From: a bacterium
Lineage (GTDB): Bacteria; SZUA-182; DTGQ01
Direction of reading: 5' to 3'
Assembly: GCA_040752695.1 (NCBI GenBank)
Contig: JBFMGO010000047.1
Coordinates: 1 to 37,985 of the forward strand
DNA: 37,985 nucleotides
This document shows, piece after piece, positions 2,161-37,683 of the stretch. The notes below the pieces were generated by a model that searched no databases, was not told the DNA's origin, and saw nothing but the letters and a program-made list of their open reading frames with translations. Each line of letters starts with the position of its first letter. Positions within the stretch are counted from its first letter, which is position 1. The position numbers and the translations under genes are program-made.

Positions 2161-3579
2161 ATGATAAAAAAAATTACAAAGTTTCTGAGTTCCTTAAGAT
2201 TAACCATTTCTCTTCTTATCATTTTAGCTTTCACTTCAATTGCCGGTACACTGATTCAGCAGCAGCAGAATCCGGCGATCTATGTGCAGCAGTTCGGCAA
2301 ACCCCTTTATAAAGTTTTTCAGGCTCTTGGCTTATTCGACCTTTACCATTCATGGTGGTTCATGTCTCTTCTGGCTCTCTTAGCTCTCAATCTGCTCTTT
2401 TGCTCACTGAAGAGGCTTCCCCGTGACCTGAAACTTATCTTTTCCCCTAAGGTAAAGCTCACCGAGGAAGAACTGAAGTCGTTCAGTTCTCAGGGAAAAT
2501 TCTCAACGAGCAGTCGTTCTCTTGATCAAACCCTCGAAACGGTGCTCGACTCTCTGAAGCGGAGCGGCTTCAGTTGTAAGCAAAAGATTAAGGATGAGGG
2601 CGCATGGCACATCTTCTCGGAGAAAGGTAAGTTCAGCCGTCTGGCCTTTCATGTCACCCACTTGAGCATTATGCTGATCTTTGCAGGAGCAATTCTCGGT
2701 GCAGCCAAAGGCTTTAGTGGTTATGTGAATATTATGGAAGGCTCCAGAGAGAATACCATTGTTTTACGGTCAGGAGGACAGGGCTCGAAACAGCTCGACT
2801 TTGCAGTTGAGTGCAGAAAATTTGAAGTAACCTACTACAAGGACGAATCAGGGAATGACACAGGCAGGCCAAAAGATTATAAGAGTCTGCTCGCTATTCA
2901 TGATCACGGAAAGGAGGTCCTTGCCAAAGAGATCGAGGTTAACGATCCACTCAGTTACGAGGGGATTTACTTTTACCAGTCCAGCTTTGGAGAGATTCCC
3001 CAATTGACCATTACGGTAAAAACTCCGCAGGCAGATTTAGTGGGGAACTTTGCAGTAGAGGAGGGAGGTTCCTTCCGCTTTGTGGATAAGGATAACGAGG
3101 AAGTGAAAGTCCGCCTTCTGCGGTACTTCCCGGATTTTACCATGAATCAGAGCGGGCAGGCCGTCAGCCGGTCAAACACCCCGAATAACCCTGCCGCATT
3201 CCTGGAAATTACATCTGCCCATGGCCAGCCGGTACAAACCTGGGTTTTTCAGCGTTTCCCCGATTTTCCTCATGCCGCTCAAACAGGGTATAAATATTCT
3301 TTAACCTCCACCAATTCGGGGAAAAAATTCACCGGCCTTCAGGTCGTATGGGACCCGGGAGTGCCACTCGTATGGACAGGATGCATTATTCTAGTCATCG
3401 GAATCATCGTTATTTTTTCCGTTCCCCATTATCGGATCTGGATCAGCATTTCTGATAAGGGGAAAAGCCGGGAAGTTATCGTAGCAGGAAACACCAACAA
3501 AAATAAGCCGTCTTTCCAAAATACTTTTTCAAAAATTATCACTGTTTTCAAAAGCAATCTTGCCGATAGGACAAAATAG
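2161..3579 (+). CDS. ccsB: Cytochrome c biogenesis System II protein ResB/CcsB
   Basis: N-terminal TM with GTLIQQ, DLYHSWWF, CSLKR, conserved His in HVTHLS, VNDPL, C-terminal TGLQV..DPG..VW.G TM. Adjacent to ccsA. Confidence 0.93.
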   Translation: MIKKITKFLSSLRLTISLLIILAFTSIAGTLIQQQQNPAIYVQQFGKPLYKVFQALGLFDLYHSWWFMSLLALLALNLLFCSLKRLPRDLKLIFSPKVKLTEEELKSFSSQGKFSTSSRSLDQTLETVLDSLKRSGFSCKQKIKDEGAWHIFSEKGKFSRLAFHVTHLSIMLIFAGAILGAAKGFSGYVNIMEGSRENTIVLRSGGQGSKQLDFAVECRKFEVTYYKDESGNDTGRPKDYKSLLAIHDHGKEVLAKEIEVNDPLSYEGIYFYQSSFGEIPQLTITVKTPQADLVGNFAVEEGGSFRFVDKDNEEVKVRLLRYFPDFTMNQSGQAVSRSNTPNNPAAFLEITSAHGQPVQTWVFQRFPDFPHAAQTGYKYSLTSTNSGKKFTGLQVVWDPGVPLVWTGCIILVIGIIVIFSVPHYRIWISISDKGKSREVIVAGNTNKNKPSFQNTFSKIITVFKSNLADRTK

Positions 3580-3604: not shown

Positions 3605-4441
3605 ATGATCAGCTCAAAATTATTTGGTGCAGCAATGATTATCTACATCGTAGCTGCTCTCATTTACATAACCTACCTGGCGCTGAAGAGCGAAAAAGTC
3701 GGCAACCTGGCTACGGTGATAACCATTCTCGGACTTTGCGTTCATACTGCCGCTCTTATTACCAGGACAGTAGCCTCCTACAGGCAGGGAATTGGCCAGC
3801 CCCCTTTTGCTAATCTGTATTCCTCAATGGTCTTTTTTTCCTGGGCTATTATCTTAACGTATATTATCCTGGAACTTATATACAAGCAAAAAGCGATCGG
3901 AGCCTTTGTCACTCCAATCGCCTTTATTCTTCTCGCTGTCACTACCCTGCTGTCGGATCAGATCGAGCCGCTTGTGCCTGCCTTGCAAAGCAACTGGCTC
4001 CTCTCGCATGTAGTAACCTGCTTTTTCGGCTACGCAGCCTTTGCCGTTGCCTGCGGTATCAGTATCATGTACCTGGTGCGGATTCATTACGAAGGGATGG
4101 GAATGGGGAATACCGGAGTGATGCAAATCCTGCCCTCCTCTGAGCTTCTTGATGAACTGGCCTACAAGGCGATAGTGATTGGCTTTCCTTTTCTGACCAT
4201 AGGGATTATTACCGGCGCAGCCTGGGCGAATTATGCCTGGGGATCTTACTGGAGCTGGGACCCGAAAGAAACGTGGTCTCTTATTACCTGGTTTGTATAT
4301 GCCGCCTTCCTGCATGCCCGGTTCGCCGCAGGATGGAAAGGAAGAAGAACCGCTGTCCTGTCGATTATTGGATTCTTATTCGTACTGTTCACTTATTTAG
4401 GCGTGAGCTGGCTGTTATCTGGCCTGCACAGCTATGCGTAA
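3605..4441 (+). CDS. ccsA: Cytochrome c biogenesis System II haem lyase ResC/CcsA
   Basis: WWD motif [24 protein letters not shown]-terminal GLHSYA; RBS AGGAGG. Confidence 0.96.
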
Positions 4442-6571: not shown

Positions 6572-7294
6572 ATGAATAACCTTTCCAAAGTTCGATTCAT
6601 CTCCTTATTCACTGTAATCGGGGCAATGCTCCTTATGCCCCTGGGATGTTCCCGTCTGGCGAAAACGTCAGTTTTTTCAAAGCCTGCCATCGGAACCAAT
6701 GCCATCTTGTATGCACCCTGGAATCCAACCAAAAAGGTTTGTGTATTACCCTTCGATAACATCAGTAAAGAACAGGATGTCAATTTGAAGGTTATGGAAA
6801 TATTTCTCACCGAGCTGTTTTCCGCCGGCATTTTCGAGGATATTGTCGACCCGATTCAGGCCAATGCTGCTTTGGGAGGAATGCGCATCCGCAAACCCGA
6901 TTCTCTCGATAAAGAGACCATCAAGGCCCTGGGTGACAGGTTGGGAGTGCAGTATTTAATTTTGGGAACGGTAACCGACTATGACTATGGAAAGACGAAA
7001 GATGCCGGCTCACAGGTCGGGTTGAGCGTCCGGATGATCGATGTCGATACGGGTAACATCCTCTGGACCGGCAACAGCTTCAAAAATGGCGATAAATCGC
7101 TGGGAAGGATCTTTGGCTTTACCAATGGGCCTAATTCGTCGGAACTTTCCAAAGTGGTATGCCAGGATATTATCACATCTCTCAAATATCAAATTCAGCG
7201 GAGCAGTAACGAAAGAGTCTGGAAGGCCCAGAATCTCCAGGAAAAACCAAAAGCAAAAGTTGCCGTAGACGACCCGGTCGAAAAGAGGCGATAA
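6572..7294 (+). CDS. Lipoprotein of the CsgG/PelC/GNA1162 (DUF799)-like fold
   Basis: Lipobox PLGC (Cys26); VCVLPFDN...LGVQYLILGTVTDY...VGLSVRMIDVDTGNILW pattern typical of this fold. Confidence 0.8.
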   Translation: MNNLSKVRFISLFTVIGAMLLMPLGCSRLAKTSVFSKPAIGTNAILYAPWNPTKKVCVLPFDNISKEQDVNLKVMEIFLTELFSAGIFEDIVDPIQANAALGGMRIRKPDSLDKETIKALGDRLGVQYLILGTVTDYDYGKTKDAGSQVGLSVRMIDVDTGNILWTGNSFKNGDKSLGRIFGFTNGPNSSELSKVVCQDIITSLKYQIQRSSNERVWKAQNLQEKPKAKVAVDDPVEKRR

Positions 7295-7302
7295 GTACTG
7301 CC

Positions 7303-8640
7303 ATGAAAATACCCTCTGTATGTAAAACCCAATACAGGCTTATCAAATTCCGGACGGGCATTGTCTGTTTGCTCTGTTTCCTGCCATTCCTTATCAATGC
7401 CTGCAAGGCAGCAGCACCGCGCCTTTCGAAGATGCCGCCGGCTATGAGTGCCAACCCACAGAACCCGGCCTCTGTACAAGACGAGGAAAATACGCAGGAA
7501 AAAGATTCTCCCGTCTCAGTGACTGCGAAAACCTCTCAGCTTCCAGCGGTAACTGAGGATACTCCTCCACCTCATGAGGAGAAAAGTCCTCTGCCGCCTC
7601 CGCCATCAAGTCCAGAAGAGAGTTCCCTCCCTCAACCGGATACAAAAGACTCCTCACCCGCACCAATTGAACACGACTCTTCTTCACCGCTTCAACAAGA
7701 TTCTCTCCCTCCCCCGCTGCCGGAAAGGAGCGCTAAAAAGAAACTGGGGTATCATCATTACAGCTACTCGTCTTCCTTTGGCGGCTCCGGGATGGGAGGA
7801 GGATTGTTCAATCACCCTGTGGCTATTGCTGTCGATAGCGACGACAATATCTATGTTGTCGATCAGGGAAACAACCTTGTCCAGAAGTTTAATGAAAATG
7901 GTATCTTCATTCGCGAATGGGGAAGACGCGGCACCACTGCTGGGGAATTTGATTCTCCCTCGGCTCTTGCCATAGACAAGAAGGGTTTTGTCTATGTAGT
8001 GGATACCAATAATAATCGGATCCAAAAAATAGACCCGGATAAAACCGAGAAGAACGCGTTCATGGCTTTTGGAGACGGAGACAGAACCCTGGGCTCTGGA
8101 GAGGGAAAATTTCAAACCCCCACTGATATCACCGTAGATAACGAAGGGTATATCTATGTGGTTGATTCCGGTAACAGCCGCATTCAAAAATTCGACAGCA
8201 ATGGAAAATTTCTCAAAGAATTCGGCAGCTATGGTTCCTGCAGGGAGTGCTTTCTGTCTCCTTCACAGATTGCCTATGATCCTACCGGATTTGGCTACCT
8301 GTATGTACTGGATCAGGATCGGAATGGTTTCCTGCTGCACAAGATCGATACCAGCGGAAGATTTTTGCAAACACTGGATGTCTTTCACCAGAAAGAGTAT
8401 CCTGTTTCTAAACCAGCCCATATCTATTTTGATGAGGACGGCTTCCTGTATGTCGTGGATCAGGGAAAGGGTTCGGTTTACAAATTCAATACCGATGGAG
8501 AATTTATCCAGGCGATAGGTGATTCATCTTCTAGAGAGGCCGCTTTGAATAATCCTCGATCAATAGTCCAGGATTCAGACAAACGGCTTTTGATCGTAGA
8601 TTCAGAAAATAACCGGATCAAAATTTTTGACCAGATGTAG
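7303..8640 (+). CDS. NHL-repeat beta-propeller protein, probable lipoprotein with Pro/Ser-rich tether
   Basis: Repeated F..P..IAVD....IYVVD..N.RIQKFD units (about 6); lipobox-like INAC (Cys34); ~110-aa Pro/Ser/Glu linker. Confidence 0.88.
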   Translation: MKIPSVCKTQYRLIKFRTGIVCLLCFLPFLINACKAAAPRLSKMPPAMSANPQNPASVQDEENTQEKDSPVSVTAKTSQLPAVTEDTPPPHEEKSPLPPPPSSPEESSLPQPDTKDSSPAPIEHDSSSPLQQDSLPPPLPERSAKKKLGYHHYSYSSSFGGSGMGGGLFNHPVAIAVDSDDNIYVVDQGNNLVQKFNENGIFIREWGRRGTTAGEFDSPSALAIDKKGFVYVVDTNNNRIQKIDPDKTEKNAFMAFGDGDRTLGSGEGKFQTPTDITVDNEGYIYVVDSGNSRIQKFDSNGKFLKEFGSYGSCRECFLSPSQIAYDPTGFGYLYVLDQDRNGFLLHKIDTSGRFLQTLDVFHQKEYPVSKPAHIYFDEDGFLYVVDQGKGSVYKFNTDGEFIQAIGDSSSREAALNNPRSIVQDSDKRLLIVDSENNRIKIFDQM

Positions 8641-11356
8641 CGGCGGCCGGGTATGGTGTCATTTTTGCAAGCTCCATTGCCCAGAGCGGGAACGATGAAA
8701 CAGCCACCAAAAGAATCAGGTCGAAAAGTCCAAGAGGCCTGGTTTTAAATATTACCTGAAGAAAAGGTATATAGATGGCTGCCATCTGCAAGAGGAACGA
8801 GAGAGCGGCTGCGATAAGAAGTTTTTTATTCGTGAACACTCCAATGGAAAACAGTGACGCAGTCATACTTCTGCAATTGAATGAATGAAAAAGCTGTGAG
8901 CAGGCCAATACCATGAAGGCAGCCGTTCTGGCCTGCTCCAGGGCTCCTTTTTCTATAAATAAAATGAAGCTGAAGGCAAGCAGACTGCAAATGGCGATAA
9001 AAGAGCCCTGAAAAAGCATCAATATACCCCGGCTCCTGGTTATGACGGATTCATGGGCAGGATGAGGGGGGCGCAGCATGATATTCGGATCAGCCGGATC
9101 TACGCCCAGAGCCAGAGCCGGCAGCCCGTCGGTCACCAGATTAATCCACAGGATATGGATCGGCAGCAAGGGAACGGGCATTCCTGCAAGAGAAGCGATG
9201 AGCATAACCAGTATCTCCCCTGCATTACAGGAAAGCAGGTAGTGTATAAATTTTTTTATGTTATCGTATATGCCCCTGCCCTCTTCAACCGCAGCCACAA
9301 TCGAAGCAAAATTATCGTCCGTAATGACCATGTCCGAGACCTCTTTGGTAACGTCCGTTCCGGTGATTCCCATGGCCACGCCGATGTCCGCCTCTTTAAG
9401 CGCCGGCGCATCATTCACTCCGTCACCGGTCATGGCTACAACCTCACCGCGCTTACGCCAGGCACGGACAACCCGTAATTTATGTTCCGGAGAAACTCGG
9501 GCGTAAACGGAAATTTTTTCCACATCCCGGTACAGCTCATCATCGCTCAAGGTATCGAGTTCATCGCCGGTCAGTGCGCGTGAATCTTCCTTAAAAAAGC
9601 CCAACTGCCGGGCAATGGCCGTGGCCGTGAGCTTATGGTCGCCAGTAATCATGACCGTTCTGATGCCGGCGGTGCCACACTTTTTAATCGCCTCTTTAGC
9701 CTCCTCCCTGGCCGGGTCAATCATAGCTACAAGCCCCAGGAACACCAGATCCTTCTCAACATCCCTGGCATTGTAATCCTTAAGGGGCGCATCGAAAACC
9801 CGGTAAGCCACAGCCAGAACCCTCATGGCCTGATCGGCCAGGTCGCTGTTTACCTGAAATATCCTCTTCCTGTCGCTCTCACTCAAGGTTTTTACCTGAC
9901 CACCGTTTTCCATCGCACGGCAGTTGTCTAACAGAACATCGGGAGCACCTTTCACAAAGGCAATGCACCGTCCGTCTTCACCTTTTCGCACGATGGTCAT
10001 TTTCTTGCGGTCCGAATCGAATGGAATCTCTTCAACCAGCGGGAATTTCTCTTCCAGATGATCCTTCAAAAGGCCCGCTTTAGCTGCGGCGCTCAGGAGA
10101 GCGCCTTCGGTCGGATCGCCAATTATCCGGTATATGCCATCTTCCGCCACTAATTGAGCGCCATTGCACAAGACGCAGCAGGATAAAGCCTTCTGCAGAT
10201 CCGGCTGTTGATCCGGTGGATCAAAAGCCCCACCCTGACCATCCGGTCCCCTCTCCCCGGCTGGCAGAAATTCCCCCTTTGGCTCATAGCCGACCCCGGT
10301 TACCCGAAAAAGAGTATCACCCGTAAAAACCGCCTGTACCGTCATTTCGTTTTTGGTAAGGGTGCCGGTTTTATCCGTGCAGATAACCGTCGCAGAACCA
10401 AGCGTCTCTACGGACGGGAGCTTTCTGATGAGGGCATGGCGCTTGACCATTCTCTGAACACCCAGGGCCAGGGCAATCGTTACCACTGCGGGGAGTCCCT
10501 CGGGTATAGCGGCAACAGCAAGGCTTACTGCCGTAAGAAACATGTCTATAACTTTTCCGCCGCGAAGGATGCCCAATAAAAACACGATACCTACAAGTCC
10601 GAAGCAAAGATAGACAATCCACTTGCCAAACTGCTCCAGTTTTTTTTGAAGCGGCGTCGATTCCCGCCCGATCGACTGAATCATTCCTGCAATTTTGCCA
10701 AGCTCGGTCTGCATGCCTGTTTCGGTAACTGCCGCCCTGGCTTTGCCGGACGAGACAGATGTTCCCATGTAGGTCATATTCACCCTGTCGGCCAGAGGTG
10801 TTGACTTTTCTTCAAGGGTCAGAGCCGTTTTCATGACAGGATTCGATTCTCCGGTCAGACTTGCCTCATGAGTGGCGAATCCTGGAGTTAACGAAACAAG
10901 ACGGCAGTCTGCGGGTATGTTATCACCGGCTTCTATCTCGATGAGATCGCCGGTAACCAGCTCTGAGGAGGGGCTCAGAATCTTTTTCCCGTCACGAATG
11001 ACTTTGGAAGTGGGGCTCGACAATTTTTTTAAGGCGGCCAGGGACTTTTCAGCCCGGTATTCCTGAATGAACCCTAAAAGTGCATTTAAAATAACGATAA
11101 CCACAATAGCCCAGGCATCGACCCATTCTCCCAAAAAGCCGGAAACGAACGCCGCACCGAGTAAAACCCAGATGATAAAGTCCCGAAACTGCTCAAGGAA
11201 TAACCGGAATGGACTGTGTCCTTTTTTCTCTTTTAACTGATTAGGACCGTATTTCTGTAACCTGAGCTCGGCCTCCTTTTGTGTAAGCCCCGAAGAGAGA
11301 TCCGTGGCCAGAAGTTTTTCTGTCTCACTGATGTCTAATTGCCACCATTGTTTCAT
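8618..11356 (-). CDS. Cation-transporting P-type ATPase, type IIA (Ca2+, SERCA/PMR1-like)
   Basis: TGES, PEGL, DKTGTLT, KGAP, MITGD, TGDGVND, INLVTDGLP motifs. Confidence 0.95.
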   Translation of the reverse strand: MKQWWQLDISETEKLLATDLSSGLTQKEAELRLQKYGPNQLKEKKGHSPFRLFLEQFRDFIIWVLLGAAFVSGFLGEWVDAWAIVVIVILNALLGFIQEYRAEKSLAALKKLSSPTSKVIRDGKKILSPSSELVTGDLIEIEAGDNIPADCRLVSLTPGFATHEASLTGESNPVMKTALTLEEKSTPLADRVNMTYMGTSVSSGKARAAVTETGMQTELGKIAGMIQSIGRESTPLQKKLEQFGKWIVYLCFGLVGIVFLLGILRGGKVIDMFLTAVSLAVAAIPEGLPAVVTIALALGVQRMVKRHALIRKLPSVETLGSATVICTDKTGTLTKNEMTVQAVFTGDTLFRVTGVGYEPKGEFLPAGERGPDGQGGAFDPPDQQPDLQKALSCCVLCNGAQLVAEDGIYRIIGDPTEGALLSAAAKAGLLKDHLEEKFPLVEEIPFDSDRKKMTIVRKGEDGRCIAFVKGAPDVLLDNCRAMENGGQVKTLSESDRKRIFQVNSDLADQAMRVLAVAYRVFDAPLKDYNARDVEKDLVFLGLVAMIDPAREEAKEAIKKCGTAGIRTVMITGDHKLTATAIARQLGFFKEDSRALTGDELDTLSDDELYRDVEKISVYARVSPEHKLRVVRAWRKRGEVVAMTGDGVNDAPALKEADIGVAMGITGTDVTKEVSDMVITDDNFASIVAAVEEGRGIYDNIKKFIHYLLSCNAGEILVMLIASLAGMPVPLLPIHILWINLVTDGLPALALGVDPADPNIMLRPPHPAHESVITRSRGILMLFQGSFIAICSLLAFSFILFIEKGALEQARTAAFMVLACSQLFHSFNCRSMTASLFSIGVFTNKKLLIAAALSFLLQMAAIYIPFLQVIFKTRPLGLFDLILLVAVSSFPLWAMELAKMTPYPAAATSGQKF

Positions 11357-20223: not shown

Positions 20224-20361
20224 TTATTTATTCCTCACTTGCTCCTGGTTTACTTGACCCTGCCCTTTATCTCCTCGGTGTTGGCCTCCACTGGCAAAAG
20301 CAGGAACTGCTACCGAGCCTAAAAATGCCACAACCAATAAAATCAAAACCGCTTTTTTCAT
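20224..20361 (-). CDS. 45-aa secreted micropeptide (absent from the ORF track)
   Basis: AAAGGAG then ATG; MKKAVLILLVVAFLGSVAVPAFA/SGGQHRGDKGQGQVNQEQVRNK* with a canonical Sec signal and AFA cleavage site. Confidence 0.85.
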   Translation of the reverse strand: MKKAVLILLVVAFLGSVAVPAFASGGQHRGDKGQGQVNQEQVRNK

Positions 20362-20666: not shown

Positions 20667-22925
20667 TTAATCAAGGCAATTCGGTTTTTTGAGATACTTG
20701 TTAAATAAGCAAAGAGCATCCTCGGGAGTAACCTCGCCATCTTTGTTTACATCTGCACCATCGGGGCAGGGTTCACCAGGTTTCATAAAGCATTTATAGG
20801 CGATCAGGGCATCCACCGGGGTGATCTGTCTATCTCCATTAAGGTCTCCATTGCAGGCACTTACCGGCAGGCCGAGATTCCGACGTTTTTCGTTCACCAC
20901 GCTTATCAGGGTATCGGCTGCTTTTTCAGGATCTTGTTCTACGTAAAATTTCCCTCCGGTAAGGGTTTCCACTCCATTGGTCAGGAGATTAACTAAATTT
21001 TGGCTTCCACTGATATAGGGCTGTGCTCCTATATGGGTAAAGATACCGAGATCGACAGCCCATGTGCCGATGGAAACAGCTTTTTCAGTGATAAATTCAG
21101 GAGCGGAAGCAGCTATGGGCAACTGGCTGTTCTGGACGTTTAAGTAACCGGCGACCGCATTCACCACATCTTCAATTCTGCTGTTATCTACACACGATCC
21201 CATATGCCAGCAGGCAGGCAGGGCTTCGAGTCCATTTGCCTTGGCCACTGCCTGTAAAACCGCCTTGAGCCCGTCACCCACACCAGGATAAGCAGGGTCT
21301 GCGGTGAGAAACCCATATTGTCCGGCCACATGCCCCCAGCATCCTGTTCCGACCACCAGGATATCCTCTGCCAAAAGCCTCCTGGTTATCGTAACATGGC
21401 GATAACCGTATGTATCACGGGGAGTTACACAGCCTACAACAGCAACGATGCCGCGAATATTATTGGCAGCGATGTTGTCTACCAACGGCTTTAAGGGATT
21501 CGTCGGATTTACGGCTGAAAGGGCCTGAAGGATTTGTTCAACCGAGAAACCAGCCACAATGTCTCTGGGAGGAATATCGGGAATATATACTTTGGAGTGA
21601 TTTCTGTTCCGGAAGTTTTGAACAGCAGCTTGTACAATTTCCCGGGCAACGGTATCTGCATTCTGAGGTTCGAATTCAATGTGGGTAGCGCCGGTAATCC
21701 TGGCGTGTGGATTAGTGGTTATGATTTTGGTATGGAACGAAGACGCAACCCTCTGTATATTCGGAATAATGCATTGGACATCTACGACCATTGCCTCTAC
21801 AGCGCCGGTAACTATGGCCAATTCCTGTTGCACCATAGTGCCGGCAGCATTAACACCTTTTCTCATGAGGACTTCATTCCCCGTACAACACATGCCCACG
21901 ACATTGATAGGCACAGATGGCCCGGAAAGATTATAGGTATTGGCTGCCTCGACGATCTTTTCCGATAAGATCGGCTCATGTCCGTGGATCACCAGGTTGA
22001 TTTTATCTCTCTCGATTACCGTAAGATTTGCTTTGGCAGTCACCAGGGACGGCGTACCAAAGATAACATCCTGGAGGTTAGTAGCCATATGCATTCCGCA
22101 ATAGCCATCAACCAACCCAAGCTTGAGTCCGCACGTCGCCAGATGGGCCATATCAGCATCGACACCCATATGAGTCCTGTGCTGTGCTTCACTGATTTCT
22201 GCACCTGCACCGGTCGGAAGAATGCCCAGGGATGTCCATAGTTTTTTCCGTTCACTGCTGGCCCGGTATTCAAGCCAGGCAGGAACGCCTTCGCTTTTAC
22301 CCAAATCTTCCAGACTCTTTTCAGCTACGGCAAGTGCCTTATTCGTTCCACTGCAACCTAATCCCGTATAAATGGCTTCCAGTTTTGCCGTGTCTACAAC
22401 ACGATAGCCGGTAATCGTTCCCAAGGCCACTGCCTTCAGTGTCCTGGCTGCCGCTCTGGCATGTTCGACATGAGCAGCCGTACCTCCGGCAATACGCCGT
22501 ATTAAATCCCGGGCAGCGATAACATCTGCGGTTGCACCGCAGGTGCCCCTTTCCTCACCCGTAGCTTTTCCCAGTGTGCATGGCCCCATCTGACAACGGA
22601 AACAGCACAGCCCGGCGGCTCCGGCAGTTCCTTTATGAGACCATTCGCAGGGAGCACCTCTATCCCAGACAAGGTCGATGCCGAGGCTTTCTGCACGCTC
22701 CCTCAGATCCTCGGTGATCTGGTCAGGGATAAAAGAGGGTGGCGGAGGTGCCTGATTATGACAGCCAAAACAGCTCCATCCTGTTGGCTGGGCAGCCATG
22801 GCGGTTTCTGCTACAGCAAGCGTTATTCCTGACGCTGTGGCCAGTTTGATGAAATTCCGGCGGCTTACACTCCCATTTTTCAACATATCCAGTAATAAGT
22901 GCATAAAATTTTGATCTTCTTTCAT
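20667..22925 (-). CDS. cooS: Ni,Fe carbon monoxide dehydrogenase catalytic subunit with Tat signal, CxxCH motif and C-terminal dockerin-like domain
   Basis: B-cluster C108-C111-C116-C129; H152/H155; C-cluster motifs HGHEP, MCCTGNE, VDVQC, VVGC, GTGC, HMGSCVDN; catalytic Lys in TEKA. Extra SRRNFIK, CFGCH, and GDLNGDRQITPVDA / ADVNKDGEVTPEDA. Confidence 0.95.
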   Translation of the reverse strand: MKEDQNFMHLLLDMLKNGSVSRRNFIKLATASGITLAVAETAMAAQPTGWSCFGCHNQAPPPPSFIPDQITEDLRERAESLGIDLVWDRGAPCEWSHKGTAGAAGLCCFRCQMGPCTLGKATGEERGTCGATADVIAARDLIRRIAGGTAAHVEHARAAARTLKAVALGTITGYRVVDTAKLEAIYTGLGCSGTNKALAVAEKSLEDLGKSEGVPAWLEYRASSERKKLWTSLGILPTGAGAEISEAQHRTHMGVDADMAHLATCGLKLGLVDGYCGMHMATNLQDVIFGTPSLVTAKANLTVIERDKINLVIHGHEPILSEKIVEAANTYNLSGPSVPINVVGMCCTGNEVLMRKGVNAAGTMVQQELAIVTGAVEAMVVDVQCIIPNIQRVASSFHTKIITTNPHARITGATHIEFEPQNADTVAREIVQAAVQNFRNRNHSKVYIPDIPPRDIVAGFSVEQILQALSAVNPTNPLKPLVDNIAANNIRGIVAVVGCVTPRDTYGYRHVTITRRLLAEDILVVGTGCWGHVAGQYGFLTADPAYPGVGDGLKAVLQAVAKANGLEALPACWHMGSCVDNSRIEDVVNAVAGYLNVQNSQLPIAASAPEFITEKAVSIGTWAVDLGIFTHIGAQPYISGSQNLVNLLTNGVETLTGGKFYVEQDPEKAADTLISVVNEKRRNLGLPVSACNGDLNGDRQITPVDALIAYKCFMKPGEPCPDGADVNKDGEVTPEDALCLFNKYLKKPNCLD

Positions 22926-24584: not shown

Positions 24585-25469
24585 ATGAATCCTGCACACA
24601 TTCGGAGCATATTAGAGGCTGTTCAACAGGGAACGACCGGAATCGACGAGGCTCTTGGCGTGCTGAAAAACCTCCCTTACGAGGATCTTGGCTTTGCCAA
24701 GCTGGACCACCACCGGCATATCCGCAGAGGGTTTCCAGAAGCGGTTTTTTGCCCGGGGAAATCCATAGAGCAGATTGTCTCCATTGCCCAAAGGATCACT
24801 GCCACAGGATCGACTCTTCTGGCCACCAAGGCCGGCGCGGAAATCTACGAAGCCATCCGGGCCATTGCTCCTTGCGCCCGCTATTACCCGCAAGCCCGGA
24901 TGATTGTCGTGCAAAAGGAGCCGCCCTCTCAAAAAGGCCATGTTTTGATCCTGTCTGCCGGTACGGCCGATATTCCCATTGCCCAGGAAGCGGCTGTTAC
25001 GGCCGAGGCCCACGGCAGCAGAGTAACCAGTCTTTTTGATGTCGGCGTGGCAGGCATTCATCGATTACTGAGCCATCAGCATCTTCTTGACCAGGCGAGG
25101 GTTATTGTCGTAGCCGCCGGTATGGAGGGTGCTCTGGCCAGCGTGGTTGGCGGACTGGTCAACAAGCCGGTTATTGCTGTGCCTACCAGTATCGGATATG
25201 GTGCCAATTTCAAAGGGGTGGCTGCGCTCCTGACCATGCTCAACAGTTGTGTAGGCGGTGTAGCTGTAGTCAATATCGATAATGGCTACTCAGCAGGCTG
25301 CATCGCCCACCTGATCAATGTCCTGCCAGAGGATGCAGAGGATACAAGGGAGCCGGCACCAGCACCGACAGCAGAGGCGAAAGGAAGGTGCCCAGAGGAA
25401 GGAGATGAGAGAGCACTGATGCAAGGGAAAAGACAAGAGGAAAATGGCAAGAAGGAGAAAACTGATTGA
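24585..25469 (+). CDS. larB: Nickel-pincer cofactor biosynthesis protein LarB
   Basis: LDHHR..RRGFPEAVF, AGTADIP, DVGVAGIHRL, AGMEGAL, VPTSIGYG, MLNSC, VNIDNG. Confidence 0.95.
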   Translation: MNPAHIRSILEAVQQGTTGIDEALGVLKNLPYEDLGFAKLDHHRHIRRGFPEAVFCPGKSIEQIVSIAQRITATGSTLLATKAGAEIYEAIRAIAPCARYYPQARMIVVQKEPPSQKGHVLILSAGTADIPIAQEAAVTAEAHGSRVTSLFDVGVAGIHRLLSHQHLLDQARVIVVAAGMEGALASVVGGLVNKPVIAVPTSIGYGANFKGVAALLTMLNSCVGGVAVVNIDNGYSAGCIAHLINVLPEDAEDTREPAPAPTAEAKGRCPEEGDERALMQGKRQEENGKKEKTD

Positions 25470-26824
25470 AAATTCTCTATTTTGATTGCTACTCCGGCAT
25501 CAGCGGCGATATGATCCTGGGTGCTCTCAATGCCTTAGGAGTGGATAGCAGGTGGCTGAGCGGGCAATTACAATCACTTCCTCTTGAGGGAGTCTCCCTG
25601 GAGCCGCAAACCGTTTCCAGGGGAGCACTGACCGGCACTCTCATGAAAGTCTGCATACCGGACCCTGACCGCCACCCCCGTCAACCCGTCCATCAGCCAG
25701 ACCAGCCCCATCAGCCAGACCAGCATGATCAGTCAAACCAGCCTGATCAGTCCCATCCCCCCCATCACCCACGAAGAACCCTGGCCGACTTTGTCAATCT
25801 CTTGCAGCAAAGCACGCTTTCGGAGGATATCCGCAGTTCGGCGATCAGGGTCTTTACTGCCATTGCTCAGGCAGAGGCCAGGATTCATGGGAAGGATATT
25901 GAAGAGATTCACTTTCACGAACTGGGCTACCTGGATTCGGTGGTTGACATTGTCGGGGCCTTACTAAGCATCAAGGCCCTGGGAATCGAAAAAATTTTTT
26001 CTTCTCCCCTGCATCTTGGCAGTGGCTTTACCTCCACAGAGCATGGAACGATCCCTGTCCCGGCACCTGCCACCCTGGAACTTCTGGCCGGTATTCCCGT
26101 ATACTCCACCGGAATTTCTCATGAACTGGTAACGCCCACCGGCGCCGGGCTCATTTCCACGCTGGCTGCCGGCTTTGGACCCATGCCCTCTTTTTCCATT
26201 GAAAAGACAGGCTATGGTGCAGGCACCAGGGAATTAACGCAGATACCAAATTTCCTTCGGGTCGTCATGGGAACTATGGATACTGCGCAAGCGATCGATA
26301 CCATGGAAACAATCAGAACCTTGGGAACTCCGGCAGCCATGGAAGCTCAAGCAGCCACAAGAACCCCATTTTCAGACTGGCGGATGGAGCGCATATCCAC
26401 GCTGGAAACCGACATCGACGATATGAACCCGGAGTACTACGACCATATCATCGCCCGGCTTTTCGCAGCCGGAGCACTGGATGTCACGCTTATCCCTGTT
26501 ATCATGAAAAAAAACCGGCCCGCCACCCGCCTGAGCGTACTCACCTCACCCGCCCTGAGCGATGAGTTGTGCTCAATAATCGTTCAGGAAACCTCTACCC
26601 TGGGCATTCGCATCAAAGAGGGCTGGAGAAAAGTCATAGACCGGGAAATCATCCAGGTGCACTCTCCCTTTGGTCCCATTCGGGTCAAGATTGGAAAGGT
26701 AAACGGAAAAATGGTCACAGCCTCACCGGAATATGAAGACTGCCGGCACATTGCCCTGAAGGTGAACCGCCCCCTGAAGGAGATCTATCAGGAGGCCCTT
26801 AAATCCATTCCATACAGTTTCTGA
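25466..26824 (+). CDS. larC: Nickel insertase LarC (fused LarC1/C2)
   Basis: YFDC.SGISGDM, HFHE, HG.IPVPAPAT, ELVTPTGA, ETDIDD, MKKNRP, ETSTLGIR, PEYEDC. TTG start overlaps the larB stop. Confidence 0.95.
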   Translation: MKILYFDCYSGISGDMILGALNALGVDSRWLSGQLQSLPLEGVSLEPQTVSRGALTGTLMKVCIPDPDRHPRQPVHQPDQPHQPDQHDQSNQPDQSHPPHHPRRTLADFVNLLQQSTLSEDIRSSAIRVFTAIAQAEARIHGKDIEEIHFHELGYLDSVVDIVGALLSIKALGIEKIFSSPLHLGSGFTSTEHGTIPVPAPATLELLAGIPVYSTGISHELVTPTGAGLISTLAAGFGPMPSFSIEKTGYGAGTRELTQIPNFLRVVMGTMDTAQAIDTMETIRTLGTPAAMEAQAATRTPFSDWRMERISTLETDIDDMNPEYYDHIIARLFAAGALDVTLIPVIMKKNRPATRLSVLTSPALSDELCSIIVQETSTLGIRIKEGWRKVIDREIIQVHSPFGPIRVKIGKVNGKMVTASPEYEDCRHIALKVNRPLKEIYQEALKSIPYSF

Positions 26825-28928: not shown

Positions 28929-29888
28929 CTAGCCAAGGAATCTATTGACAATATTTCGGATGCAAACCGCAGCCCCGCTGTTGGGGTACTCTTGAAATAA
29001 AGGTACCCGTTTTCTGGCTGACAACTTGACATGATCATCATAGGTAACATATCCGATGTAGCTTAAGTTCACCCCCAAGTATTTTCTCGTTACGTCACGA
29101 ATTGAATCTCCGGCTTGAATATCGGTTTGAGACCGAACCTGGTTCATGATTAACCGTGGCTTAAATTTCAGAATTTCATCTACCATGGCTTCTGCTGCTG
29201 CTGGGTCGAGTTGATAAACCCTTTCTACCAATTCGTAAATAGTGCGAAATCCTCCAGCCTCTTTCGGAAAAGCGGCCTTTTCTATGAGCGGTTGATAAGG
29301 AGAACCCTGGAACCGGCGCATTAATTTTCTATTCAGGCAGCACCTGATAAAGCGATACATATTCTCGATAGAAGTGGGCTCAGGTACGGCCACCAGAAGT
29401 CCCTGATCGGAAATGAGAAAGAAATCAAGGTTATTATAAGCGGTACCGGCACCCACATCCAGGATAATGTATTCAAAATCCAGCTCTTTTACCTGCTGAA
29501 TCAGCTTGTCTTTTATTTGGCTGCTGATATTTGCCAAGCCCAGCACCTCATTGGCGTCACTGATCAGGTGAAGATTCTCATACTGGGTGCCAACCAGAGC
29601 ATCCGACAGGTGAGAGGTCCGGTCTCTAAGAAAATCAGCCAGGGTAATGGAAGAAGGGGTAACTCCTAAATAGGTGTGGAGGTTTCCACTGCCAAGGTCA
29701 GCGTCAATGATGACCACCTTTTTACCCCTCCGGGCCAGTTGAACTGCAATACTGGAGGCGATAATGCTCTTGCCTGTGCCTCCCTTTCCTCCTGCAACGG
29801 CCCAGATTTTCTTGTTGATTTGCTCAACCCGTTTGCTTTCGGTTTGTTTACTTACGTCTTCAGATTTTTGAAAGAATCTTGCTAACAT
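28929..29888 (-). CDS. MinD/FlhG/ParA-family ATPase
   Basis: Deviant Walker A GGKGGTGKS, DADLG, LDVGAG, PEPTS. Confidence 0.88.
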   Translation of the reverse strand: MLARFFQKSEDVSKQTESKRVEQINKKIWAVAGGKGGTGKSIIASSIAVQLARRGKKVVIIDADLGSGNLHTYLGVTPSSITLADFLRDRTSHLSDALVGTQYENLHLISDANEVLGLANISSQIKDKLIQQVKELDFEYIILDVGAGTAYNNLDFFLISDQGLLVAVPEPTSIENMYRFIRCCLNRKLMRRFQGSPYQPLIEKAAFPKEAGGFRTIYELVERVYQLDPAAAEAMVDEILKFKPRLIMNQVRSQTDIQAGDSIRDVTRKYLGVNLSYIGYVTYDDHVKLSARKRVPLFQEYPNSGAAVCIRNIVNRFLG

Positions 29889-36231: not shown

Positions 36232-37332
36232 TCAAAAGGGAACCAACTCATATTCCCGTGTCCCGAGGCCGATCTGTGCCCCATAGTTGAGCTGGATACT
36301 CCAGTCCACCGTGGGATGCACCCCGCGAAACTTATCGCCCCCCTTGCCAAAACCCTTCTTTAAAGCCGTCCGCTTGATCCCTTCACTCGCGTTGACCAGA
36401 TCCACCGATGCCTGATCAATAGCTACAGGGTCATGTGATGCCATTATTCCCAGATGCGGCACAATGGGCACATCGGAATGCTGACAGCAATCACAATCAG
36501 GAGTGACATTGATAATGAAGTTAATATAAAGGACAGCGATGTTCAGCACCCTGGTTATCCCGTAAACATGCTCGCAGATCTTCTCCTGGACATTGTGTAC
36601 GGATTCATTCCAGCGTATGCGTATGGCCTTGTTCGGACAATTGACCAGACATTGGCCACACCCCGCGCATTTTTCCGAATCAATCCAGGCCCGCCCCTCC
36701 TGCAGATACATTGCCTCAAAGGCACAACGCGCGGTGCATAAACCGCATCCCTGGCAGCTTTTCGCAATGTAGGGAGCAACTGTCGAATGCATGGAAAGCT
36801 TGCCCCCTTTGGAAGCAAGACCCATACCCATATTCTTCAGCGCCCCTCCGAAACCGGTTAACTCATGCCCCTTGAAGTGAGACAGACAGATAACGCTGTC
36901 AGCGGAAAAAACCGCTGAAGCGATCTCAACCTCACGGTAGTGCTTCAAGTCGACCGTCACCCTGCGAATGCTTTCACCCCGGACCCCATCGGCAATAATA
37001 ATCGGAGCACCAATAACGGAATAGGAGAAGCCATTCGCTATCGCAGTTTCTATGTGACTTATGGCCTCGGCCCGTCCTCCGACATACACGCTGTTAGAGT
37101 CGGTTAGAAACGGTTTTCCACCCCGCTTTTTTACCTCGTCCACCAGGGCTTTGACGAATTTGGGATGGATATACCCCCAGCATCCTCTTTCACCAAAGTG
37201 GAGCTTCATTGCCGTCAAGCCGCTCAACTGCACTCTGTTGTTTTCCGGCATGTCGAGCAGTGAAGCCAGCTTTTGGAAAAGATTGCTTTTTACCGACGAT
37301 TGTAAATCGATAAAGAAAACTTTTGATGACAA
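36232..37332 (-). CDS. DUF362 Fe-S protein with inserted ferredoxin domain
   Basis: KLHFGE, PFLTD, IIIADG, HFKGH...GFGGALKN.GMG, two CxxCxxCxxxC motifs, PDCDC, DPVAIDQA. Confidence 0.92.
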   Translation of the reverse strand: MSSKVFFIDLQSSVKSNLFQKLASLLDMPENNRVQLSGLTAMKLHFGERGCWGYIHPKFVKALVDEVKKRGGKPFLTDSNSVYVGGRAEAISHIETAIANGFSYSVIGAPIIIADGVRGESIRRVTVDLKHYREVEIASAVFSADSVICLSHFKGHELTGFGGALKNMGMGLASKGGKLSMHSTVAPYIAKSCQGCGLCTARCAFEAMYLQEGRAWIDSEKCAGCGQCLVNCPNKAIRIRWNESVHNVQEKICEHVYGITRVLNIAVLYINFIINVTPDCDCCQHSDVPIVPHLGIMASHDPVAIDQASVDLVNASEGIKRTALKKGFGKGGDKFRGVHPTVDWSIQLNYGAQIGLGTREYELVPF

Positions 37333-37400: not shown

Positions 37401-37619
37401 CTATTTCTCAGAAGTGCTTTTCTCCTCAATCTCCTTTTTCGTGGCATCGGTGATTTTCTCCCGCGCCTCTTTCTCTGCGCCTGATGAGGTTGCATCCTTA
37501 AAATTGCGAATCGCTTTCCCAAGGCCGTGGCCGATTTCAGGCAGTTTACCAGCCCCGAAAATAATCAAAACGATTACCAGGATAACCAACAGTTCCGCCA
37601 TGCCAATTCCAAAGGGCAT
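37401..37619 (-). CDS. tatA: Twin-arginine translocase subunit TatA
   Basis: [38 protein letters not shown] before ATG 37619. Confidence 0.95.
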
Positions 37620-37683
37620 ATGCCAATCCTCCCTTCCAGTGAAACACTGACCCTGCAATCAAGCATTAAAGGTTAGAAGAACT

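Follow-up and report, generated by a model that had tools for sequence, protein, structure and literature searches.

The window analysed here is a stretch of 37,985 nucleotides (contig JBFMGO010000047.1 of assembly GCA_040752695.1, from a bacterium of the lineage SZUA-182; DTGQ01). It carries a gene, cooS, for a nickel-dependent carbon monoxide dehydrogenase (Ni-CODH) that is extended at both ends. Its product, called P0001 below, starts with a predicted twin-arginine translocation (Tat) signal peptide, continues through a short tail with a probable heme-c attachment motif into the catalytic core, and ends with a linker and a type-I dockerin (Table 1). In the translation, residues 1-44 map exactly to the span of the predicted signal, and a Shine-Dalgarno-like GAGGG is located ~10 nt 5' of the ATG. 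The gene is solitary, with rpsB-tsf-pyrH-frr on one side and a family 2 glycosyltransferase (GT2) gene on the other. An earlier note on this DNA had claimed that the protein is a CooS with a Tat signal, which matures in the cytoplasm and is then exported.

Table 1. Positions of cooS, its parts and the export and heme machinery in the window
Feature	Position	Strand	Basis
cooS gene, 752 aa + stop	20667..22925	-	Open reading frame (ORF) translation: Tat signal, heme-motif tail, Ni-CODH core, linker, dockerin
Predicted Tat signal peptide, residues 1-44	22794..22925	-	Motif, clade conservation, codon comparison; outside the AlphaFold2 (AF2) core
Long n-region, residues 1-20	22866..22925	-	AF2 helix 2-16; homologue N-termini
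Twin-arginine motif S21-R-R-N-F-I-K27	22845..22865	-	R22/R23 invariant in alignment A1; TIGR01409 match at residues 20-39
h-region L28-A39 (LATASGITLAVA), uncharged	22809..22844	-	Translation
Predicted signal peptidase I site A42-M43-A44, cut before A45	22794..22802	-	Judged by eye
C52-F-G-C-H56, CxxCH, probable heme-c attachment site	22758..22772	-	Translation; clade conservation
His97, candidate distal heme ligand	22635..22637	-	Four residues past invariant Cys93; co-varies with CxxCH
B- and D-cluster Cys93, Cys107, Cys108, Cys111, Cys116, Cys129	22539..22649	-	Invariant in A1; align to the N-terminal Cys motif of 6elq
Ni-CODH catalytic core, residues 66-686	20868..22730	-	6elq alignment, A1 invariance, AF2 pLDDT mostly 80-98
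Type-I dockerin, residues 693-752	20670..20849	-	PF00404; genome scan match 20700-20849
ResB/CcsB, System II cytochrome-c maturation	2161..3579	+	Sole ResB match in the genome
CcsA (Cytochrom_C_asm), heme-lyase partner of ResB	3605..4441	+	Profile match
TatA/E family protein	37401..37658	-	One of two TatA-family genes in the genome

The identification as CooS holds. The gene is intact, the family hidden Markov model (HMM) TIGR01702 matches residues 70-686 with 583.4 bits (cut-off 478), and the Pfam domain Prismane (PF03063) spans residues 106-667 (E 1.9e-146). The closest solved structure is Carboxydothermus hydrogenoformans CODH-IV (PDB 6elq), which aligns over residues 68-684 (E 2.2e-168). 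His316, Cys347, Cys385, Cys499, Cys529 and Cys578 align with 6elq positions 261, 295, 333, 446, 476 and ~525, which we take to be the C-cluster ligands by the numbering of ChCODH-II. The catalytic residues His152 and Lys615 align as well, and so does the CC-x2-C-x4-C...C motif of the B and D clusters, in which the cysteines are presumably allocated to the D and B clusters as in ChCODH-II. Relative to 6elq the first D-cluster cysteine is displaced, with Cys93 five residues upstream of the aligned position. The C-cluster residues, His152, Lys615 and the B- and D-cluster cysteines are all invariant in an alignment of 45 members of the clade defined below (A1). With every cluster ligand present, including all those of the C-cluster, cooS is judged to encode a catalytically complete Ni,Fe-CO dehydrogenase. 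The AF2 model has a mean predicted local distance difference test score (pLDDT) of 80 and a confident core at residues ~66-686. The N-terminal 66 residues fall outside this core, and confidence is low at residues 1-60 (pLDDT 34-63), in the loops at 91-115 (<50) and in the C-terminal 60 residues. Compared with the cytoplasmic CODH-IV (6elq) and CODH-II (1su6) of C. hydrogenoformans, P0001 has the same full-length core, C-cluster ligands and B- and D-cluster cysteines, but adds 66 residues at the N-terminus (Tat signal and CxxCH tail) and 66 at the C-terminus (linker and dockerin).

A search of 5.8 billion proteins, with 120 matches listed, placed the N-terminal extension in a defined group. P0002-P0079 (50-92% identity) cover the extension; from P0080 onward the matches are ~626-residue archaeal and ~635-residue Firmicutes-type CooS with a canonical N-terminus. 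We refer to P0001-P0079, a rare group of CooS, as the clade. All 72 members with a complete N-terminus carry the motif RR-x-[FLVM]-[LIMFV]; the seven other rows of the 79 are six that are truncated at the N-terminus and P0039, which has both RR and CxxCH. All 42 listed outgroup CooS (P0080-P0121) have the canonical start and no RR extension. In a FastTree phylogeny of 85 rows, from which nine truncated rows and one unrelated ORF had been removed and in which the outgroup had been thinned from 42 to 13, 70 RR-bearing rows form one group with 98% support. The RR-bearing P0077 and P0079 group with signal-less archaeal sequences, a possible long-branch artefact, as FastTree joins long branches too readily.

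The N-terminus of P0001 reads MKEDQNFMHLLLDMLKNGSV-SRRNFIK-LATASGITLAVA-ETAMA, then AQP. The translation agrees in full with the earlier description of SRRNFIK at residues 21-27, the stretch LATASGITLAVA at 28-39, Glu40, and A42-M43-A44/A45, and the conservation of RR among homologues, proposed there as a check, is seen in all 72 complete members and is invariant in A1. The one point that we would revise is Glu40, which had been said to make the h-region atypical. It sits in the c-region, where the residue directly ahead of the -3/-1 site varies across the clade, and so calls for no special explanation. The mean Kyte-Doolittle hydropathy over the 16 residues that follow the SRRNFIK motif (on its 3' side in the gene) is 1.27. 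Judged by eye and without a count, most listed homologues have a small residue and then Ala at the equivalent of the cleavage site.

Several comparisons bear on whether this signal is real. Against the 92%-identical orthologue in G002, a second genome of the genus, codons 1-45 of cooS show 13 changes that are synonymous and 5 that are non-synonymous, so the extension is translated and under purifying selection; the 120 nt 5' of the gene are identical at only 45/120 positions. In the 6.05-Mb genome, only eight ORFs of at least 150 residues combine a strict Tat pattern with an uncharged hydrophobic stretch behind it. One is cooS; the small subunit of a [NiFe] hydrogenase (TIGR00391, 464 bits), with a long classical Tat signal, is another. 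Automated annotation already flags the signal in part of the clade: one cluster bears the name 'twin-arginine translocation signal domain-containing protein', and PF10518 is precomputed for five listed clusters. This comparative evidence confirms the predicted Tat signal on CooS as being beyond chance. The n-region is long and is conserved in subclade B of the tree with the pattern F/L-x-x-L-h-E/D-M-h-x-x-G, and a proofreading chaperone may bind there.

The signal could be real and yet stay uncleaved, with the h-region as an anchor that keeps the enzyme at the inner membrane, on its outer side. Some Tat substrates, such as the Rieske proteins, are anchored by uncleaved signals, and we have counted this precedent in favour of an anchor. 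The Glu that follows the h-region, an AxA site recognized only by eye and a flexible linker at residues 45-66 (low pLDDT) that would suit a tether point the same way. We nevertheless consider an anchor quite unlikely. Ala at -1 with a small or aliphatic residue at -3 recurs in the listed homologues (by eye) despite variable surroundings, the h-region is short at 12 residues and its hydrophobicity is weak, and a membrane anchor would be redundant with the dockerin.

C52 is located eight residues past the predicted cleavage site, on the N-terminal tail of the mature protein. In the stretch between the signal and the first core helix, 44 of the 72 complete clade members have CxxCH, 4 have CxxC without the His and 24 have neither. 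All 44 CxxCH-bearing members are in subclade B (49 rows), together with a nested group of four that keep only CxxC and with P0008, which has lost the motif; in subclade A the motif is found in 0/21 rows. His at position 97 is present in 44/45 CxxCH-bearing members, 0/24 members without CxxC and 0/4 CxxC-only members, and Gly90 co-varies with CxxCH much as His97 does. In the alignment His97 adjoins the column of the D-cluster cysteine of 6elq. The D-cluster is the surface-exposed end of the CODH electron chain, so a heme at this site would sit next to the electron exit of the enzyme. We regard CxxCH as a probable heme-c site, with His97 as the candidate sixth ligand.

Alternatively, on a genuine Tat substrate, CxxCH and His97 may form a Cys2His2-type metal site, an extra Fe-S site or a redox dithiol in place of a heme, and electrons would leave via a separate partner. 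The co-varying Cys, Cys, His and His97 also suit a tetrahedral metal site, the four CxxC-only members dispense with the His, and the cysteine-rich loops are poorly modelled (pLDDT <50 at 91-115). Such a site is unlikely in our view. The exact CxxCH spacing is kept in 44/49 subclade-B rows, the motif is on the exported tail immediately after the cleavage site, and His97 is also gone in the four CxxC-only sequences, which fits the loss of a heme site as a unit. In addition, in a Myxococcota metagenome-assembled genome (MAG) whose CooS is of the CxxCH form (L244), a heme-lyase pair, a ResB-like gene (ccsB) and then ccsA, directly follows cooS on the same strand, overlapping.

A different cysteine pattern was seen in the members that have no CxxCH. 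In subclade A they often carry CxxC or CxxxC directly before V-N-R-R-D-F-L-K. At least two cysteines precede RR in 14/24 motif-less sequences and in 1/44 sequences with CxxCH. These Cys-pair n-regions are found in the P0033-P0066 group, for example at L243:8873-10942, L246:8926-10986 and L248:8951-11017.

The dockerin at the other end of P0001 has many counterparts in its genome. PF00404 matches residues 693-742 with 31.9 bits (cut-off 22.9). The two Ca-binding F-hand repeats are DLNGDRQITPVD and DVNKDGEVTPED; the domain has five cysteines and ends in NCLD, and AF2 places helices at 703-714 and 734-746 with low confidence. Of the 72 complete clade members, none but P0001 and its congener P0002 ends in a dockerin. 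Two tblastn matches (L067, L077) considered as dockerin-bearing relatives are ordinary CooS with neither signal nor dockerin. The genome has 40 cohesin matches (39 above the cut-off) and 47 dockerin matches, on 54 ORFs. Of its dockerins, 36 recovered by pattern, that of CooS included, share one architecture, C-x-G-D-x-N-x-D-G...C-Y-L...C...D-V-N-x-D-G-x-V-T-P-x-D-A-L-C...C-L-D at the extreme C-terminus. Since the dockerin is of the host's own type, it appears to have been added to an imported cooS, and it provides an independent argument for a site outside the cytoplasm. Among the 54 ORFs an RR motif was flagged only in CooS, and several others start with Sec-like leaders (by eye, uncounted).

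Two other proteins that end in the same dockerin type carry CxxCH motifs. The first, of 1324 residues, has 23 of them and matches Paired_CXXCH, MtrC/MtrF-like and cytochrome c7 profiles (contig C83:13749-17720, L252:3750-7721); the second, of 453 residues, has two (contig C64:6896-8254, L253:3897-5255). These dockerin-tailed proteins, together with CooS, suggest that redox proteins may be assembled on cohesin scaffolds. A complex prediction for the CooS dockerin (residues 684-752) with one of the ~40 cohesins (P0123, contig C6) scored 0.19 against a mark of 0.34, a result that speaks neither for nor against docking.

The genome encodes the machinery that export and heme attachment would call on. 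A second TatA gene and a TatC gene (219.6 bits) are on contig C15. Omp85/BamA genes are present, indicating an outer membrane and hence a periplasm. The ResB and CcsA proteins of the window would be needed for heme attachment to CooS. In relatives, CbiA-family, CooC-like ATPases are encoded upstream of cooS (L265/L271 and L257/L261), and the window's own genome has a homologue 49% identical to the one in L265. A 319-residue ParA-like ATPase in the window (28929-29888) was also considered as a CooC, and was rejected as it shares only P-loop similarity with the L265 neighbour. The invariant RR, the intact cluster ligands, TatA/TatC and the CooC-like ATPases favour the order of events proposed in the earlier note, maturation in the cytoplasm and then export. 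That note had overlooked CxxCH, His97 and the dockerin, which strengthen its case for export. The genome holds three CODH systems. At C3:30691-32529 (L250) a cooS stands beside a CooF-like protein and Ech-type hydrogenase subunits, and at C62:18875-20644 (L251) there is a Wood-Ljungdahl cluster of CODH and acetyl-CoA synthase (AcsE, AcsD, AcsC, a CooS-type subunit and AcsB). The predicted exported form in the window is the third.

Gene neighbourhoods were read in ten long contexts (the window and L240-L249) and in nineteen short metagenome flanks. In L243, whose CooS is of the form without CxxCH, a cytochrome with a signal peptide and seven CxxCH is encoded two genes upstream of cooS. In L241, a MAG labelled Thermodesulfobacteriota, the gene two positions upstream of cooS encodes an alpha-type carbonic anhydrase with a Sec-like signal (6637-7377), which could hydrate CO2 formed in the periplasm. 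A Fer4 (CooF-like) domain was not found among the 21 window ORFs and the 50 neighbours of L240-L249. In this the loci differ from those of cytoplasmic Ni-CODH, for example the C3 copy of the same genome.

Potential regulators recur near the gene. A gene for an H-NOB heme gas-sensor protein is directly upstream of the Tat-type cooS at L247:1524-3020, L264:324-845, L263:9-1505 and L269:705-1238, and is accompanied by an AraC-type response regulator in L247 and L263. L263 and L269 duplicate L247. The sub-lineage comprises a Nitrospirae-labelled MAG and metagenome contigs. The H-NOB protein may sense CO and act as a regulator different from CooA and RcoM. LuxR-type response regulators are near cooS in L267 and L272.

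Relatives in other genomes were found by a clade-specific degenerate pattern, by protein searches of genome samples and by metagenome flanks. A locus search built from the clade alignment had picked generic CooS peptides, with the matches listed at no more than 52% identity, and was replaced by the clade-specific pattern. Eight of the nine matches to that pattern are true members, all eight with RR; the ninth, in Desulfothermus okinawensis (L237), was rejected as it has no clade-type ORF. Two carriers were found in a 401-genome sample of the class containing Desulfonema magnum, in which the top two candidates per genome were scored. Members occur in MAGs labelled Thermodesulfobacteriota, Desulfobacterales, 'delta proteobacterium', Myxococcota, Phycisphaerales and Nitrospirae, and one Myxococcota MAG has two clade copies. 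Among 61 genomes around that of the window, the full-length form is present only in the window's genome and in G002; the other matches reach at most 47% identity and start at query residue 52 or later, and an exported-type cooS was not found in the third genome of the genus. The S2 protein of the window's genome shares 79-89% identity with those of MAGs labelled only 'bacterium' or 'Pseudomonadota bacterium', and 71% with those of MAGs labelled Nitrospirae. The G002 orthologue (L240, G002:C55:95000-114000, cooS at 8713-10968) is at a different locus from that of the window, between trpE and a PD-(D/E)XK transposase gene. Its different position and the absence from the third genus member fit a recent acquisition and mobility of cooS. 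The GC content of cooS (~0.50, versus 0.39-0.45 in the flanks) was too undistinctive to serve as an argument for transfer, and we dropped it.

From these motifs, their conservation and the machinery genes we infer a route for export, cleavage, heme attachment, docking and electron transfer. We propose, with a probability of roughly 0.7, that CooS is exported by Tat, given heme c, docked through its dockerin and oxidizes CO outside the cytoplasm, passing electrons to cytochromes. The Fe-S clusters and Ni would be inserted in the cytoplasm with the help of CooC-type ATPases whose genes are elsewhere in the genome. Once folded, and probably as a dimer, the protein would be recognized via S-R-R-N-F-I-K and moved across the inner membrane by TatA/TatC, and signal peptidase I would cleave after A44. 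The flexible tail from A45 to ~P66 would then offer C52-x-x-C55-H56 to the System II lyase ResB/CcsA for attachment of one heme c, with H56 and His97, which shares a loop with the D-cluster cysteine, as axial ligands. The dockerin would bind a cohesin-bearing protein, on a scaffold that could also hold the dockerin-bearing 23-heme cytochrome. The reaction CO + H2O -> CO2 + 2H+ + 2e- would take place in the periplasm or on the envelope and release its protons outside, and the electrons would pass from the C-cluster through B, D and heme c to c-type cytochromes.

A number of observations weigh against this proposal. The Tat HMM TIGR01409 scores 16.5 bits on P0001, just under its cut-off of 16.7, and at E<=0.1 it picks up no more than 27 of 45 clade members; TIGR02811 matches 7 of 45. 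CxxCH was lost in P0008, the nearest sister of P0001, and is reduced to CxxC without the His in four relatives, so the motif is dispensable. The association of CxxCH with His97 comprises only four independent contrasts; all four are concordant, giving p=0.125 in a sign test, and the FastTree tree behind it was restricted to core sequence downstream of the columns under test. The normal substrates of heme lyases are unfolded and exported by Sec, and it would be plausible but unusual for heme to be attached to the tail of a folded Tat protein. In the window, no cytochrome, chaperone, cooC or dedicated ccs gene was found beside cooS; its ResB/CcsA genes, the general copy of the genome, stand at a distance of ~16 kb. 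Among the ten genome contexts, ccsBA adjacency and an adjacent cytochrome were each seen once.

Some of these points could be taken to mean that the N-terminal extension is not an export signal at all and that the enzyme is cytoplasmic, its RR being a chaperone- or partner-binding peptide or a relic. The borderline HMM score is compatible with this, as far as we know the characterized Ni-CODHs are all cytoplasmic, and a Tat-specific chaperone gene was not found near cooS in the scanned neighbourhoods. We consider such a role highly improbable. A relic would not keep RR in 72/72 members under purifying selection, the full n/h/c architecture is present, and a Ca-dependent, Cys-rich dockerin of the genome's cohesin/dockerin type is fused to CooS. 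Periplasmic neighbours in relatives (ccsBA, the signal-peptide cytochrome and the alpha-carbonic anhydrase) also speak for a site outside the cytoplasm.

The proposed Tat export and heme attachment can be extended to a larger assembly, which we put forward as a speculative and rather doubtful idea. Heme-c CODH on cohesin scaffolds, beside the 23-heme cytochrome, would form an extracytoplasmic 'redox-some', a self-assembling wire from CO to extracellular acceptors or partner cells, and periplasmic CO oxidation would be a property of the whole clade in MAGs labelled Thermodesulfobacteriota, Myxococcota, Nitrospirota and Planctomycetota.

Other features of the window are recorded here in their own right. 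A candidate 45-residue ORF with a signal-peptide-like start, MKKAVLILLVVAFLGSVAVPAFA, and a Gly/Gln-rich tail is located ~300 nt downstream of cooS (20224-20361, minus strand). A pair of LarB-like (AIR carboxylase domain) and LarC-like (Ni_insertion, E 1e-135) genes at 24585-26824 (plus strand) is divergent from cooS at a distance of 1.7 kb and represents a second nickel-handling function nearby. LarB and LarC belong to the synthesis of the nickel-pincer cofactor, and we know of no link between them and CODH maturation. Directly downstream of the TatA gene, a DUF362 protein with a 2x[4Fe-4S] ferredoxin insert is encoded at 36232-37332 (minus strand). A scan for promoters and terminators around cooS found sites no more numerous than in shuffled sequence.

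The proposed route has a close parallel in sulfate reducers, in which Tat-exported periplasmic [NiFe] hydrogenases and formate dehydrogenases reduce periplasmic cytochromes c3. As in those enzymes, CooS would be assembled in the cytoplasm, exported folded by Tat and oxidize a small reductant outside, with electrons passing to c-type cytochromes. Unlike in those enzymes, the active site is a Ni-Fe-S C-cluster that would oxidize CO, it is the catalytic subunit that bears the signal, and the heme site is apparently fused to CooS instead of residing on a separate Sec-exported subunit. Split-Soret cytochrome c, which also holds an Fe-S centre, has an unrelated fold and is not an enzyme of CO metabolism. 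As a precedent, it is described as a c-type heme protein with a predicted twin-arginine signal (PMC4429474).

The CooS dockerin resembles those of cellulosomes and of the systems of anaerobic methanotrophic archaea (ANME) and sulfate-reducing bacteria in being of type I, with two Ca-binding repeats and many cohesins in the genome. The cargo differs, since CooS is a redox enzyme and not a glycoside hydrolase or an adhesin. In syntrophic sulfate-reducing bacteria, according to the accessible part of the report, cohesin/dockerin proteins are conserved, highly expressed putative adhesins (PMC10553843), and the text available for another places such proteins in ANME as well (PMC9012536).

Models of anaerobic CO metabolism assume a cytoplasmic CODH. 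To our knowledge, all biochemically characterized Ni-CODHs are cytoplasmic and pass electrons to ferredoxin-like partners. Full-text literature searches, supplementary tables aside, turned up no Ni-CODH described as Tat-signalled, periplasmic, heme-linked or dockerin-linked. In its available text, a structural and phylogenetic survey of Ni-CODHs contains neither 'signal peptide' nor 'cytochrome', and 'periplasm' only for ABC transporters (PMC6344411). In the accessible portion of another paper, 'periplasmic carbon monoxide dehydrogenases' are merely speculated on, without evidence (PMC11509735).

If our proposal is correct, the periplasmic site would be a cellular location not described for the Ni-CODH family. 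It is also uncommon for one polypeptide to require metallocluster assembly in the cytoplasm, Tat export and heme-c ligation in the periplasm, as CooS then would. As a naturally heme-wired CODH with a plug-in dockerin handle, it would be attractive for immobilization on electrodes or scaffolds. For the organism, CO would be removed before it enters the cell, a form of detoxification, and its oxidation could conserve energy via scalar protons and cytochrome networks, as periplasmic oxidation of H2 and formate does. In sediments, CO could in this way be linked to extracellular or interspecies electron transfer.

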